A DNA stretch of 26,648 nt from a virus (IMGVR_UViG_2531839149_000016), one strand, 5' to 3'; shown: positions 7,458-17,236, counted from the stretch's first letter. Notes: a model not told the origin generated them from the sequence alone. A program made the numbers and translations.

Positions 7458-8285
7458 TTAAACTTGGGGAAGTATTTTTTTTGCAAAATCAATAGTTTCT
7501 TTGTGGTTGGATGCAGGTATATGATTTATTTTCTTAGCATCCATAGTTCTCTTTATGATGTCAATAACTTTGCTTTGGCCTGAGTTTGGTGATTCAGGAG
7601 TTTCAATTGTGAATAAAATGTCATCAAGTGAAAGCAGGTTTTCTTCTGCTGCTCGAGTTATTCTCATCACCCAAGTATCACTATGCTCCATCATTTTTCC
7701 TGGTTCAGCTTGAGTGAATGCCAGAGGTTTGATGGCACATTGGATCCTGTCATGCTTCTTGGCGACCAATGGCATTGAGAACTTTGCGAAATACCCATCA
7801 ATGGTTGCTTGTTTGAAGACGTTCTTCAATCCATCTATTCTATCGATACTTCGTTTTAGCTCTCTGGCTAGAACATCTTCACGGCGCTCTTTTGTGTAGT
7901 CAGAGTGGTTTACATATTTATTGTAAATGCGGGCCAGCTCTTCTTTTGGGTTTTCGCTGAGAATCACTCTCGTAGAACTGAACTGAAAAATTGATTCTTT
8001 TTTGTTTGTAAAATATCTGAAGAATTGTGCAAGTTGTTGATGTCCAACAATCTGGGTCGCATGCATTTTTGCGAACTGTAGTTCTCTTTGTATTGAGTCT
8101 TTTGCTACAGGGAAAATACAATCATCATGGAAAAAATTCTTTACACGAGAGTCATTTCGCTTTGTGAGCTGGAAATCAAAGTAATTTTCTTTTGGCGCGC
8201 ACAGAAGTACGCCTATGTTTGCGAATTCTTCAGTCTCCGCATAAGGCGCATAGCGAACGATGCTATATAGGCATGGAGTTGTCAT
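7458..8285 (-). CDS. DUF3037-family protein
   Basis: ORF starting MTTPCLYSIVRYAPYAETEEFANIGVLL…, the characteristic N-terminal signature of DUF3037 proteins as I recall it; its ATG overlaps the upstream gene's stop (ATGA), implying translational coupling; the track ORF extends to 8300 from a non-ATG start. Confidence 0.75.
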   Translation of the reverse strand: MTTPCLYSIVRYAPYAETEEFANIGVLLCAPKENYFDFQLTKRNDSRVKNFFHDDCIFPVAKDSIQRELQFAKMHATQIVGHQQLAQFFRYFTNKKESIFQFSSTRVILSENPKEELARIYNKYVNHSDYTKERREDVLARELKRSIDRIDGLKNVFKQATIDGYFAKFSMPLVAKKHDRIQCAIKPLAFTQAEPGKMMEHSDTWVMRITRAAEENLLSLDDILFTIETPESPNSGQSKVIDIIKRTMDAKKINHIPASNHKETIDFAKKILPQV

Positions 8286-9031
8286 TCTATTGCGCTCCAA
8301 AATTCATCACAATCACCTTTGTCTAGCGTAGTGCAGACAAAAGGTAAAAACTCCTCATCTACTATCCACTCTTCTGGAATTTCGTCAAGGATAGCAGGAA
8401 GCTTGTGTAAACTGTTAACGACCCTCTGGCGGTACTCTACGCGATCCACTAAATCATATTGCCATTTGCGGTTACCAGGGCCGTACACGTGCACAGAAAA
8501 ATCTTCAGGTCCAGCATTCTGATCAAATGAGAGATTATGGTCAATCAGATAATACTTATCGTTACTGATGTCATAAAGGATGTTAACGTTTCCACCTTTG
8601 TCAGTAAGCGTTCTGTCTGCATTTAATATCCATTTATCAAAAACATAGATTAATTTTTGCTGTTCGACTGGGATGATCGTTTCGTTTCTTGACTGCGTAA
8701 ACGTTAACGCTATTGCACCGTCAATGAACAATGAAGCAAAGGCATATCCTGTACAAATTTGTTGCTGCAGATCAGGTGAGTACTCTATAAGTTCCTCTGG
8801 CACAAATACGATTTTAAAGTCAGGTAAAGGAAGGCCGATATCATTAGCCAAACACGCCGAAATGAACTCAGCTAAGAGATTTTTCGGGGGCATTGATGGT
8901 TTTGACTTCAAAACATACAACTGCCCATCATCACATTTGCAAAGAAATGGCTGAGTGGAACCTTCATTGATGCGACGTATTACTTCAACGACATTAGGTA
9001 TTGCACTATTGCTGCTCGCTACGCACTCCAT
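8282..9031 (-). CDS. Small HipA-like / protein-kinase-like-fold protein (putative Ser/Thr kinase)
   Basis: About 250 aa; kinase-like motifs readable in the translation: beta3-Lys (YVLKSK), catalytic-loop-like ILNADRTLTDKGGNVNIL (D…N), and a DFG-like LIDHNLSF; AAGGG RBS 6 nt upstream of the ATG at 9031. Confidence 0.65.
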   Translation of the reverse strand: MECVASSNSAIPNVVEVIRRINEGSTQPFLCKCDDGQLYVLKSKPSMPPKNLLAEFISACLANDIGLPLPDFKIVFVPEELIEYSPDLQQQICTGYAFASLFIDGAIALTFTQSRNETIIPVEQQKLIYVFDKWILNADRTLTDKGGNVNILYDISNDKYYLIDHNLSFDQNAGPEDFSVHVYGPGNRKWQYDLVDRVEYRQRVVNSLHKLPAILDEIPEEWIVDEEFLPFVCTTLDKGDCDEFWSAIE

Positions 9032-9153
9032 CACTAACCCTTATGTGATTCAAGTCTTCCATCTCATTACTCCGCATCTCAAAGAGCGGTTTAACACTGC
9101 GTGTTTAAAGAAAAACAACAGGCCTATTGCTGTAACTGTTTTTTAGCCTCACT

Positions 9154-9947: not shown

Positions 9948-10178
9948 ATGAACCCAGCTATCAAAACAGCGATCAATATCGTTGGTTCACAAAAGAAACT
10001 GGGCGCTGCTTGCGAAGTTTCACAGCAGGCCGTCTATAAGTGGCTTCACAACAAAGCAAAGGTATCCCCTGAACATGTCGGCAGCATTGTTACGGCTACT
10101 GGTGGAGTAGTGAAGGCATACCAGATTCGCCCGGATCTTCCGAAGTTGTTTCCACACACCGAAAAGAACGCAGCTTAA
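9948..10178 (+). CDS. cro: Cro-like HTH regulator (YdaS/Cro family)
   Basis: 76-aa ORF divergent from cI, with an HTH (KKLGAACEVSQQAVYKWLHNK). Confidence 0.8.
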   Translation: MNPAIKTAINIVGSQKKLGAACEVSQQAVYKWLHNKAKVSPEHVGSIVTATGGVVKAYQIRPDLPKLFPHTEKNAA

Positions 10179-10247
10179 ATTTCCATTTCACGCTCTTTAA
10201 CAATAAGCAATCAACTTAACAGTCAATTCAAACTAAAGGAGTCAATT

Positions 10248-10787
10248 ATGCAACCACTTACATACCAACAGACTAGCGGATTTAGCCCGACTGCGGTGAT
10301 AAATCGTTCTCAAACAAAACAGGTGCCAGGCCACGAAAAAATCCGTGATGCCGTCCGCGCCTGGTCGGCTGAAGATAATCAGGATGTCGTTGCCACACTC
10401 ATTGTGAATGAGTATCGGGAGCAGGGCGGCGGCACTATCGATTTCCCTGATGATGTCAGCCGTGCACGCCAGAAGCTGTTCCGCTTCCTCGATAACAAAT
10501 TCGATTCTGAAAAATACCGAAATAACGTGCGTGAACTGACCCCGGCAATTCTGGCGGTACTACCGCTGGAATATCGCGGTTACCTGGTTGAGCAGGATAG
10601 CTTCATGGCTAGGTTGGCTGAAATGGAAAAGGAACTCAGTGAGGCAAAACAGGCTGTCATTCTCAACGCACCACGCCACCAGAAACTGAAGGAAATTAGT
10701 GAAGGTATTGTGTCGATGTTTCGTGTGGACCCAGATCTGGCTGGTCCATTGATGGCGATGGTTACTACCATGCTGGGGGCGATATGA
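10248..10787 (+). CDS. YdaT-family protein (occupies the cII position)
   Basis: 179-aa ORF; segments EYREQGGG and LTPAILAVLPLEYRGYL resemble Rac YdaT as I recall it; directly downstream of cro with an AAAGGAG RBS. Confidence 0.6.
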   Translation: MQPLTYQQTSGFSPTAVINRSQTKQVPGHEKIRDAVRAWSAEDNQDVVATLIVNEYREQGGGTIDFPDDVSRARQKLFRFLDNKFDSEKYRNNVRELTPAILAVLPLEYRGYLVEQDSFMARLAEMEKELSEAKQAVILNAPRHQKLKEISEGIVSMFRVDPDLAGPLMAMVTTMLGAI

Positions 10788-10873
10788 CAGGTTCAGAAAT
10801 GGCGAAAGCCGGTCTGCTGGAACAGAACCGACTTTCAGGTGCAAATCGTAACACACTCATTGCGGGAGGAATT

Positions 10874-11362
10874 ATGGCAAACACTGCTGAGATATTCAAT
10901 TTTCCAGTGCCGGATGCGGCACAAAAGGAGCCGCGCGTGGCAGATCTCGATGATGGTTATACGCGCATTGCAAATGAGTTGCTGGAAGCTGTAATGCTGG
11001 CCGGATTAACACAGCACCAGCTTCTGGTCTTTCTGGCTGTCATGCGCAAAACATATGGCTTTAATAAAAAACTGGATTGGGTTAGCAACGAGCAACTTTC
11101 CGAATTAACCGGGATATTGCCGCACAAGTGTTCTGCTGCAAAAAGTGTTCTGGTAAAGCGTGGGATTTTTATTCAGAGCGGGCGGAATATCGGCATCAAT
11201 AATGTGGTCAGTGAATGGTCAACATTACCCGAATCGGGTAAGAAAAATAAAGTTTACCTGAAAGAGGTAAATTTACCTGAATCAGGTAAGAAAAGTTTAC
11301 CTAAATCAGGTAAAGGCGTTTACCCGAATCAGGTAAACACAAAAGACAAACTAACAAGGTAA
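10874..11362 (+). CDS. O: Replication initiator O, N-terminal iteron-binding domain (lambda O-like); terminated by an in-frame TAA
   Basis: MANTAEIFNFPVPDAAQKEPRVADLDDGYTRIANELLEA… aligns with the lambda O N-terminus (…NVADLDDGYARLSNMLLEA…); GGGAGGA RBS upstream; the coding region contains the iterons. Confidence 0.8.
   Translation: MANTAEIFNFPVPDAAQKEPRVADLDDGYTRIANELLEAVMLAGLTQHQLLVFLAVMRKTYGFNKKLDWVSNEQLSELTGILPHKCSAAKSVLVKRGIFIQSGRNIGINNVVSEWSTLPESGKKNKVYLKEVNLPESGKKSLPKSGKGVYPNQVNTKDKLTR
11225..11336. repeat. ori: Origin of replication iterons: five near-palindromic repeats of about 17 bp, consensus TTACCTGAATCAGGTAA
   Basis: Repeats at about 11225, 11255, 11273, 11297 and 11320, inside the O gene and followed by an AT-rich stretch, the same architecture as lambda ori. 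Confidence 0.75.
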
Positions 11363-11383
11363 TGCTGCCAACTTACTGATTTA

Positions 11384-11824
11384 GTGTATGATGGTGATTT
11401 TAAGGTGCTTGCGTGGCTTCCATTTCCATCAGATGTCCTTCCTGCTCCGCTACTGAAAGCGGATGCTGCGATTCAGAACGGCAGCAAGTGGGGGACAGCA
11501 GAAGACCTGACCGCCGCAGAGTGGATGTTTGACATGGTGAAGACCATCGCGCCATCAGCCAGAAAACCGAATTTTGCAGGGTGGGCTAACGATATCCGTC
11601 TGATGCGTGAACGTGATGGACGTAACCACCGCGACATGTGTGTACTGTTCCGCTGGGCCTGCCAGGACAACTTCTGGTCCGGTAACGTGCTGAGTCCGGC
11701 CAAACTCCGCGACAAGTGGACCCAGCTCGAAATCAACCGAAACAAGCAACAGGCTGGCGTGACAGCCGGCAAACCAAAACTCGACCTGACGAACACTGAC
11801 TGGATTTACGGGGTGGATTTATGA
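11384..11824 (+). pseudogene. O: Replication protein O, C-terminal (P-interacting) portion, same frame as the N-terminal part but separated from it by a TAA at 11360-11362
   Basis: ORF ends …TNTDWIYGVDL with an ATGA overlap onto P, as the lambda O C-terminus does; it has only a GTG start and no RBS of its own; in-frame with the upstream O ORF. Confidence 0.6.
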
Positions 11825-12522
11825 AAAACATCGCCGCACAGATGGTTAACTTTGACCGTGAGCAGATGTGCCGGATCGCCAATAACATGCCGGAACAGTA
11901 CGACGAAAAGCCGCAGGTACAGCAGGTAGCGCAGATAATCAACGGTGTATTCAGCCAGTTACTGGCAACTTTCCCAGCGAGCCTGGCTAACCGGGACCAG
12001 AACGAACTGAACGAAATCCGCCGCCAGTGGGTGCTGGCTTTTCGGGAAAACGGGATCACCACAATGGAACAGGTTAACGCTGGAATGCGCGTAGCCCGTC
12101 GGCAGAATCGACCATTCCTGCCATCACCCGGGCAGTTTGTTGCATGGTGCCGGGAAGAAGCATCCGTTATCGCCGGACTGCCAAACGTCAGCGAGCTGGT
12201 TGATATGGTTTACGAGTATTGCCGGAAGCGAGGCCTGTATCCGGATGCGGAGTCTTATCCGTGGAAATCAAACGCGCACTACTGGCTGGTTACCAACCTG
12301 TATCAGAACATGCGGGCCAATGCGCTTACTGATGCGGAATTACGCCGTAAGGCCGCAGATGAGCTTGTCCATATGACTGCGAGAATTAACCGTGGTGAGG
12401 CGATCCCTGAACCAGTAAAACAACTTCCTGTCATGGGCGGTAGACCTCTAAATCGTGCACAGGCTCTGGCGAAGATTGCAGAAATCAAAGCTAAGTTCGG
12501 ACTGAAAGGAGCCAGTGTATGA
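11821..12522 (+). CDS. P: Lambda replication protein P (DnaB helicase loader)
   Basis: 233-aa ORF near-identical to lambda P (MKNIAAQMVNFDREQM…KFGLKGASV). Confidence 0.97.
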   Translation: MKNIAAQMVNFDREQMCRIANNMPEQYDEKPQVQQVAQIINGVFSQLLATFPASLANRDQNELNEIRRQWVLAFRENGITTMEQVNAGMRVARRQNRPFLPSPGQFVAWCREEASVIAGLPNVSELVDMVYEYCRKRGLYPDAESYPWKSNAHYWLVTNLYQNMRANALTDAELRRKAADELVHMTARINRGEAIPEPVKQLPVMGGRPLNRAQALAKIAEIKAKFGLKGASV

Positions 12523-12812
12523 CGGGAAAAGAAGCAATTATTCATTACCTGGGGACGCATAAGAGCTTCTGTGCGCAGGACGTTGCTGCGGTAACAGGCG
12601 CAACAGTAACCAGCATAAACCAGGCTGCGGCTAAAATGGCGCGGACAGGAATCTTAGTTATTGATGGTAAGGTCTGGCGAACGGTGTATTACCGGTTCGC
12701 TACCAGGGAAGAACGGGAAGGAAAGGTGAGCACGAATCTGATTTTCAAGGAGTGTCGCCAGAGTGCCGCGATGAAGCGGGTGTTGGCATTTTATCGCGGC
12801 AATTTTCAATAG
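12519..12812 (+). CDS. ren: Lambda Ren
   Basis: 97-aa ORF MTGKEAIIHYLGTH… matching lambda Ren; ATGA overlap with P. Confidence 0.9.
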   Translation: MTGKEAIIHYLGTHKSFCAQDVAAVTGATVTSINQAAAKMARTGILVIDGKVWRTVYYRFATREEREGKVSTNLIFKECRQSAAMKRVLAFYRGNFQ

Positions 12813-16519: not shown

Positions 16520-17044
16520 TTATTGTTTAACCCATAATAATTCATTGACATTGAATCCCAACTTTTGAGCGGTTCGCACATAGTCTGCTTTTACTTTATC
16601 TGGAATAGTTGGGGTCCTTGCCAGAATCCATAGGTATTCTCTGTTCGGACCACTGACAAGAGCATACTTATACTCATCATCCAGTTTGATTACATTATAG
16701 CCACCATAGAAGGGGCCAAAAAACGAAACCTTCAATGCTGCAGTTTTAGTATCTCCAGTAAAGTATGCTTTACCTTCGCTCTCGCTCCATTTATTTTTCG
16801 TTGGATCGTATCCACGGTTAAGTACACGAATCCCTCCGTCGTTCCGTTTTCCATAAGTAGCGCTGACCTGTTCCAGACCACGTTCGAACCGGTTCTCGAG
16901 GCGAGCTATTTCATACCATTTTCCGAGGTAGCGGTTGGCGTCAAAATTTGTAATCGGCTGCACACCTTTAGGTGGTGTCGGGGCCTTACATGCTATAAGA
17001 GTGAAAGAGAGTGCAATGCCAGTCAACACAGGCCATAACTTCAT
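16520..17044 (-). CDS. Blc-like outer-membrane lipocalin (lipoprotein)
   Basis: 174-aa ORF with lipobox (LIAC) and strong resemblance to E. coli Blc (…NFDANRYLGKWYEIARLENRFERGLEQVSATY…FFGPFYGGYNVI…EYLWILARTPT…), but clearly divergent from the chromosomal blc. Confidence 0.85.
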   Translation of the reverse strand: MKLWPVLTGIALSFTLIACKAPTPPKGVQPITNFDANRYLGKWYEIARLENRFERGLEQVSATYGKRNDGGIRVLNRGYDPTKNKWSESEGKAYFTGDTKTAALKVSFFGPFYGGYNVIKLDDEYKYALVSGPNREYLWILARTPTIPDKVKADYVRTAQKLGFNVNELLWVKQ

Positions 17045-17236
17045 AATAAATCCTGTACTTTTGATAGTTGAGAGTAAGTATGAAAGATAGATGATTACGA
17101 CCGATCACTTAAAGAACTTTCATACTATATTAGGAATAGTCCATAACAGAAAAATTGTCAGTGATGACGCCAGAAAGGCAATTTATTCCGTGCACTACAC
17201 AGTTTATGTGTTAATGAATTAGTCAAGGGGGAGAAT

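Follow-up and report, generated by a model that had tools for sequence, protein, structure and literature searches.

The locus raises the question of whether a run of short palindromes inside a phage replication-initiator gene forms an origin of distinct specificity, as an initial annotation proposed, and whether this copy of that origin could still fire. We analysed the whole stretch of 26,648 nucleotides from the virus IMGVR_UViG_2531839149_000016, hereafter the window, with all positions counted from its first letter. The reading that we regard as very probable is that the palindromes are putative binding sites of the locus's own lambda-O-family initiator, and that the window origin is dead through a scar left by the insertion sequence IS1. 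The genes concerned are the following.

10874 to 11362, + strand: O', a truncated replication-initiator gene of 162 codons plus TAA, from the list of open reading frames
11458 to 11824, + strand: 'O, a remnant of the lambda-type C-terminal (P-binding) domain, in frame with O' and cut off from it by the TAA
11821 to 12522, + strand: P, a lambda-type DnaB helicase loader (Pfam Phage_lambda_P, PF06992, E 5e-62)

O' encodes the N-terminal origin-binding domain and the iteron-encoded linker. Its ATG at 10874 has a GGGAGG ribosome-binding site, aligns with Met1 of lambda O and is the RefSeq start in strain YD786; a longer frame of 192 aa is also open from an upstream ATG at 10784. RefSeq starts differ between near-identical alleles of this gene, which is given as 1020 bp in AR437 and as 930 bp in YD786. 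In the 192-aa frame, Phage_rep_O (Pfam PF04492, E 3e-34) covers residues 51–145 and the iterons begin at codon 148, and the array sits inside the initiator gene, directly 3' of that domain. The DNA-binding role of the O N-terminal domain is not in doubt; a PDB sequence search with O' returned no significant match and hence gave no structural support for a binding mode. The initial annotation embedded the iterons in an O coding region, and they do lie within the frame of the Phage_rep_O gene, but that frame is not continuous: it ends at TAA 11360–11362, 24 nt past iteron 5. The lambda-like C-terminal half of O stays open in the same frame from about 11384 to 11824. Intact alleles of this O encode 309 or 339 aa in one polypeptide, and the window copy is split by the TAA. 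P, the partner of the O C-terminal domain, lies directly downstream and is intact, and the records of relatives call it replication protein P.

The five repeats are located as follows.

11225 to 11241: iteron 1, TTACCCGAATCGGGTAA, self-complementary at 16 of 17 positions and found at the same position in 77 of 80 related viral loci
11254 to 11270: iteron 2, TTACCTGAAAGAGGTAA, with the most degenerate centre
11273 to 11289: iteron 3, TTACCTGAATCAGGTAA
11297 to 11313: iteron 4, TTACCTAAATCAGGTAA
11320 to 11336: iteron 5, TTACCCGAATCAGGTAA, adjoining the unwinding tract

All five are 17-bp near-palindromes of the form TTACC-N7-GGTAA with zero half-site mismatches in the pattern alignment; they are self-complementary at 12–16 of 17 positions and start 29, 19, 24 and 23 bp apart, roughly two helical turns. 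The tandem array reported earlier at 11225–11336 was thus reproduced at exactly those coordinates. A degenerate pattern, searched over the 26.6 kb with up to three mismatches, finds the five iteron sites only (10 hits over both strands), against 0.21 hits expected from shuffles, and 0 of 100 shuffles reached 10.

Iterons 1, 3 and 4 share one reading frame and are translated as LPESGKK, LPESGKK and LPKSGKG, while iterons 2 and 5 are read in another frame as VYLKEVN and VYPNQVN (frame offsets over the five copies 0, 2, 0, 0, 2). The repeated PESGKK peptide ascribed to the array therefore holds for three copies, the fourth iteron in variant form, and not for the other two. The LPESGKK-like repeats do lie in a Lys/Ser/Pro-rich linker, as they would if the array were a low-complexity peptide linker with no function at the DNA level. 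We give that reading next to no credence: two of the five copies are out of frame with the others and yield other peptides, all copies are inverted repeats, half-sites are nearly invariant and spacing is fixed across E. coli and Klebsiella relatives at ~80% DNA identity, and all O types examined have a palindrome of their own there. Furthermore, among 80 IMG/VR viral loci with N-terminal domains 83–100% identical to that of the window O, 77 have exactly five iterons with a spacing of 29, 19, 24 and 23 and near-invariant half-sites, and most variation among the 80 falls at central positions. All five window iterons are intact and agree with the consensus of this population. Because the copies are read in two frames, the conservation is one of DNA, which suggests that selection acts on the iteron DNA and not on the peptide.

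The lambda-like architecture that had been described is borne out by the comparison with lambda. In both, the iterons follow directly on the Phage_rep_O domain inside the initiator gene and are 17–19-bp dyads; the lambda spacings of 20, 24 and 23 (four 18-bp iterons, ITN1–4) are close to the last three of the window, 19, 24 and 23; a homologous AT-rich tract starts with ACACAAAAGAC, 38 bp in lambda; and the O C-terminal half is ~97% identical, with a lambda-type P gene downstream. The aligned lambda O protein becomes near-identical to the intact allele from residue 171 (BLASTP). The differences are equally plain. Lambda has four copies of TCCCTC-N5-GAGGGA, whereas the window has five of TTACC-N7-GGTAA, with an extra copy upstream; the N-terminal domain is 49% identical; and in the window both the tract and the gene are interrupted by the IS1 scar. 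The pairing of a non-lambda iteron (lambda's being TCCCTCAAAACGAGGGA) with a non-lambda N-terminal domain, at 49% identity to lambda O against ~97% in the C-terminal part, is accordingly upheld.

To place the iteron among related initiators, we compared nine other O-type genes with N-terminal identities of 39–83%, which makes ten types with the window's own. Their N-terminal identities to the window O and their repeats are as follows.

Klebsiella GZ7: 83%; TTACC-N7-GGTAA, five copies with identical spacing
P22 gene 18: 65%; TTACC-N5/6-GGTAA
SEN34: 61%; TTAGC-N7-GCTAA
Yersinia phage 21.09: 60%; TTAGC-N7-GCTAA
Morganella phage: 50%; GAGACA/TGTCTC arms
lambda: 49%; TCCCTCAAAACGAGGGA
HK544: 48%; TTAGC-N7-GCTAA
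phi80: 40%; TTCCCGAAAACGGGAA
Sf101: 39%; GTCACCAAAACGGTGAC

Each of the 10 types has a palindrome of its own at this position, with ACACAAAAGA after it, and database records for lambda, phi80 and P22 annotate the equivalent sites as iterons, initiator-binding sites or origin. O binds each lambda iteron as a dimer (PMC6022878). We infer O binding in the window from the co-variation of N-terminal type and iteron across the ten types and from the conservation described above, which together indirectly support cognate binding of O to the window iterons.

The specificity called distinct by the initial annotation is so in part. The iteron differs from those of lambda, phi80 and P22, but its half-sites are shared with P22, and those of SEN34 and HK544 (TTAGC-N7-GCTAA) are one base per half-site away. 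On these alignments the P22 type is the nearest other type to the window iteron. The P22 gene 18 origin (rep_origin 32840–32984, BK000583) has TTACC/GGTAA half-sites, an N-terminal domain 65% identical and an ACACAAAAGACAATA tract after the sites; it differs in its spacer of 5–6 nt instead of 7, in having four sites, and in that the gp18 C-terminus pairs with the DnaB-like helicase gp12 and not with lambda P. Klebsiella GZ7, and likewise ST11-VIM1phi8.2, shares the iteron type, the five copies, the spacing of 29, 19, 24 and 23 and an N-terminal domain 83% identical, but has an unrelated C-terminal half (~50% DNA identity) and a DnaC/DnaI-type loader instead of lambda P. The Stx phages 933W and P27 carry six lambda-type iterons and N-terminal domains 48% identical to the window's. 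Among Stx origins, iteron number ranges from 4 to 6 within one specificity, and extra promoter-proximal iterons add residues to O (PMC7466680); the window's extra iteron 1 is comparable to these.

The mosaic structure points the same way. Compared piecewise at the DNA level, the intact allele is 50–68% identical to lambda over O nt 1–480 and 88–96% thereafter, and 73–88% identical to GZ7 over O nt 1–480 and ~50% thereafter. With the iterons at O nt 352–463, the mosaic breakpoints fall just past the iterons in two independent comparisons. In lambda/phi80/82 hybrids, the O N-terminal domain binds DNA and the C-terminal domain binds P, with a flexible linker between them (PMC6022878, citing Furth and Yates 1978, Wickner and Zahn 1986, Tsurimoto and Matsubara). 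Judged from these alignments, N-terminal domain and iterons match in specificity and recombine together as one module; its partner is lambda P in the window and a DnaC/DnaI-type loader in GZ7, and the P22 version goes with a DnaB-type helicase. The proposal of a cognate initiator–origin pair on a mosaic segment is supported by an own palindrome for each N-terminal type and by the switch of identity between lambda and GZ7 past the iterons, and the principle is a textbook one. Past the last iteron, ACACAAAAGA(C/A)A is conserved in the ten O-type loci (L003, L004, L006–L013) despite unrelated C-termini. The ACACAAAAGA tract coincides with the mosaic breakpoint and may serve both as the start of the unwinding tract and as a recombination joint.

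The origin type itself is common. The O gene, at a coverage of at least 80% of the query, is present in 2175 of 5426 complete E. coli genomes (~40%) and in 15 deposited phage genomes (e.g. 4A7, Lambda_4C10, Perceval and the PhiR series). The 16 phage records ranked highest, among them all 15 with coverage of most of the query, include none named 82. Comparison with other lambdoid origins, which had been suggested as a check, shows the window type to differ from the origins of lambda, phi80 and P22; the allele is far from rare. A literature string search found no paper containing the iteron string, and for the TTACC-N7-GGTAA iteron type we found no description in the searchable literature; the kind of feature is a textbook one.

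Shortly past the last iteron, the window departs from its intact relatives.

11337 to 11357: surviving AT-rich tract, 21 bp, ACACAAAAGACAAACTAACAA, of ~38 bp, homologous to that of lambda (alignment and stability)
11358 to 11457, + strand: IS1 left-end remnant, 100 bp, in which 77 nt follow the terminal inverted repeat GGTAATGCTGCCAACTTACTGAT; it lacks a transposase
11454 to 11457: TGAA, deletion-junction microhomology between IS1 positions 97–100 and O (three-way alignment)

E. coli AR437 has a complete 768-bp IS1 whose opening 100 nt agree with 11358–11457 at 100 of 100 positions; for the IS1 of AH21C062 the agreement is 91 of 100. At 11358–11380 lies an exact match to the IS1 terminal inverted repeat, GGTRATG..CCAACTTAYTGAT, the single one in the window, with 0 expected by chance. 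A query containing the IS1 DNA matches a median of 10 places per E. coli genome, as an insertion-sequence fragment would. A complete IS1 has 768 bp and makes a 9-bp target duplication. The window holds IS1 positions 1–100 only, with neither a second IS1 end nor the insA/insB transposase genes, and the right-hand copy of the 9-bp duplication is missing from the window, having been deleted; around the complete IS1 of AH21C062, AACTAACAA is duplicated. The IS1 DNA of the window is a scar and not an element.

Compared with the intact PhiR34_1 and AR437 same-site alleles, IS1 DNA stands in place of AAGACAATATAAAACC...CCTTCCTGTGG, a 75-bp piece of O that comprises ~17 bp at the distal end of the AT-rich tract and 58 bp of linker. 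Beyond the TGAA junction, the window matches intact O without a mismatch, and the 'O remnant has 0 mismatches to the intact AR437 allele. IS1 bases 3–5 (GG-TAA-TG) supply the in-frame stop at 11360–11362. The net length change from the scar is +21 nt; the O frame is therefore preserved, and the IS1-supplied TAA is the only block to it. A single base change in TAA 11360–11362 would give a full-length O with a 32-residue IS1-derived linker. Retention of the frame across the scar may be chance (one in three).

AT-rich DNA after the iterons had also been noted. It is there for 21 bp (11337–11357), the surviving stretch terminating at the IS1 target AACTAACAA (11349–11357), and from 11358 the DNA is the IS1 remnant. 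In intact alleles, the tract after the last iteron, ACACAAAAGACAAACTAACAAAAGACAATATAAAACC, is homologous to lambda ACACAAAAGACACTATTACAAAAGAAAAAAGAAAAGA, and a contiguous AT-rich tract of ~38–40 bp is present in these alleles and absent from the window copy. The 38 nt past the last iteron are 63% AT with a dG of −48.1 kcal/mol in the window, compared with 74% and −43.4 kcal/mol in intact relatives and 76% and −42.5 kcal/mol in lambda. The window value is close to the local mean of −49.6 kcal/mol, and the low-stability signature is lost. Over the first 40 nt past the last iteron the window is 62% AT, the IS1 end itself being 60–65% AT.

By analogy with lambda, the intact allele would work in four steps. 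An O N-terminal dimer would bind each TTACC-N7-GGTAA site; with all five bound, the dimers would form an 'O-some' by wrapping the DNA; next to it, the AT-rich tract of ~38 bp would open; and the O C-terminal domain would recruit P–DnaB, whereupon replication would start. In the window DNA, IS1 inserted at AACTAACAA inside the AT-rich tract, and a later deletion from IS1 position 100 to TGAA in O left the 100-bp scar, at a cost of 75 bp of O including the distal half of the tract. The IS1 end thereby places a stop between the DNA-binding and the P-recruiting domains of O. The iterons can probably still be bound, as O' keeps the whole DNA-binding domain. We infer loss of firing from two separate defects: with O split in trans and the tract damaged in cis, the window origin should not fire. 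Neither defect figured in the initial annotation, and its implied working origin does not hold for this copy, in which the IS1 scar takes half of the AT-rich tract and the stop splits O.

The same evidence bears on whether the locus could be a functional origin of distinct specificity, working in an element with its own O. Its five iterons are intact and at consensus, P is intact, and the C-terminal part of O is in frame with 0 mismatches to the intact allele, all of which such an origin would have. Nevertheless, we consider it very unlikely, given that TAA 11360 ends O after 162 residues and that equivalent lambda ambers are null: Oam317, which leaves 160 residues, and Oam205, which leaves 294 of 299, are both O-null (PMC6022878). 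The lambda O trans function does tolerate some internal in-frame deletions (PMC6022878). In addition, the 75 bp lost to IS1 DNA include half of the AT-rich tract, and in lambda the loss of 12 bp (r95) or 15 bp (r96) from that tract makes the ori defective (PMC6022878). Finally, the junction occurs in 0 of 80 viral loci and 0 of 5426 E. coli genomes, and a working configuration would be expected to recur.

A full-length O could also come from elsewhere. This O type is present twice in AR437-like genomes, unwinding in lambda takes at minimum two iterons plus the AT-rich tract (PMC7466680), and the first 40 nt here are still 62% AT. If another prophage in the cell furnished O of this type in trans, the remaining 21 bp might unwind together with the IS1 end. 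Such residual unwinding and firing are unlikely, though a small chance is conceded. The low stability of the tract is lost (−48.1 against a local mean of −49.6 kcal/mol), small deletions of the lambda tract abolish ori function in cis (PMC6022878), and a prophage with no morphogenesis genes would have no productive outcome.

The iteron array, with or without O', could act as a decoy or dominant-negative against superinfecting phages of the same replication type. Plasmid-borne lambda iterons block rep-lambda phages, with iterons 3–4 required and the AT-rich tract dispensable (PMC3349717; PMC4488673), and O' retains the entire DNA-binding domain. The lambda effects, however, needed multicopy plasmids and in one study also oop RNA (PMC3349717; PMC4488673); the window array is single-copy, and an Rfam scan of the whole window detected no oop-like or other RNA. 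O' moreover lies downstream of a repressor-controlled early promoter region, and the scar is unique to the window with flanks free of divergence, as befits a recent accident and not a maintained trait. A single copy, repressor control and a recent, unique scar make a decoy highly improbable; if true, it would be a single-copy natural analogue of the lambda plasmid-borne 'inhibition phenotype'. A promoter and terminator scan around the origin gave counts not above those of shuffles, with a lone + strand hit in the IS1 end.

In AH21C062, a complete IS1 stands at exactly the position of the window scar in opposite orientation, flanked by the 9-bp duplication AACTAACAA (L002, 2075–2845), and this opposite-orientation junction is unique to AH21C062. 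As that insertion differs in orientation and IS1 variant, the AT-rich tract has been struck by IS1 at least two times independently, which suggests an IS1 hotspot in AT-rich origin DNA, at AACTAACAA. Junction matches of ~87–90% look like IS1 ends beside other flanks and are probably not further IS1 insertions here.

The left junction of the window, with the same IS1 variant and orientation, is present in 193 complete genomes. Its carrier there is a second prophage remnant, which is heavily deleted and has a full IS1 but lacks the O C-terminus. We compared the SNP pattern around the scar with this O::IS1 allele and with the intact allele at the ybhC site, both from AR437, and one tract stands out.

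10994 to 11457: tract sharing descent with the O::IS1 allele of the second prophage remnant (SNP pattern)

Specifically, 10994–11357 has 0 mismatches to the O::IS1 allele (AR437 L005) compared with 10 to the intact allele (L003), whereas the upstream 9948–10993 has 22 mismatches to the O::IS1 allele compared with 2 to the intact ybhC-site allele (L003), and 11458–12812 has 0 mismatches to the latter. The left crossover of this gene-conversion-like patch falls within 10994–11031. The SNP pattern means that the disrupted tract shares descent with the O::IS1 allele; it rules out a plain IS1 insertion followed by internal deletion in situ and calls for a step of recombination or conversion. Most likely, prophage copies residing in one cell recombined and the disrupted tract was thereby carried over; the proposed route has a crossover in homologous DNA on the left and a junction at microhomology on the right. 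The exact deletion junction is absent from 5426 complete E. coli genomes and from the GTDB species representative genomes, and an IS1-like end follows the iterons in 0 of 80 related viral loci. With no divergence to its right, the junction appears to be recent and confined to one strain.

The surrounding prophage adjoins ybhC. Its genes extend from int, by way of the lysis genes, to Nu1 (22223–22783), after which comes a truncated tail-fibre fragment (22864–23436); beyond that fragment, no head or tail genes are found in the window prophage. Sister strains, 99.9% identical over 1–23642, have an intact O and likewise lack head and tail genes. By its gene content, the prophage is defective regardless of the O scar.

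Several neighbouring genes depart from the lambda plan. Between a cI-like repressor and kil/gam/bet/exo, genes for a kinase of the HipA_2 family (250 aa, E 1e-76) and a DUF3037 protein (280 aa) overlap on the − strand at 7458–9034, and the same pair is present in sister strains. In lambda this position is occupied by rexAB, and the HipA_2/DUF3037 pair could be a prophage-borne toxin or defence pair. On the + strand at 9948–10787, the cro and cII positions hold a YdaS-like (76 aa) and a YdaT-like (179 aa) gene, not lambda-type Cro and CII; the YdaT-like gene is labelled 'cII' in some phage records. At 16520–18196, between the Q antiterminator and the lysis genes, lie a − strand gene of the lipocalin family, so named in the sister strains, and a YbgA-family gene (+ strand; 2-thiouracil desulfurase plus DUF1722), both in the manner of moron cargo. 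The right end of the window, 23643–26648, has no match to the sister strains and ends in an MFS transporter gene (25365–26648), where the sister strains have a methyltransferase, a GGDEF gene, IS1 and ybhB; this points to a further rearrangement or deletion at the right prophage border. An inverted duplication of the window ends, considered because both end genes encode 427 aa, was dismissed, as the two genes are unrelated.

For annotation, the prophage should be called replication-defective and its O gene a pseudogene with an IS1 scar interrupting it; beyond annotation, the locus itself matters little. It nonetheless illustrates cleanly what is known of lambdoid initiators, whose N-terminal domains co-evolve with the iterons and are swapped together with them as one module. 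The TTACC-N7-GGTAA iteron is widespread in E. coli prophages and forms a graded series with the P22 (N5–6) and SEN34/HK544 types, a series of related iterons that could be useful for studying how specificity changes in winged-helix-type initiators.
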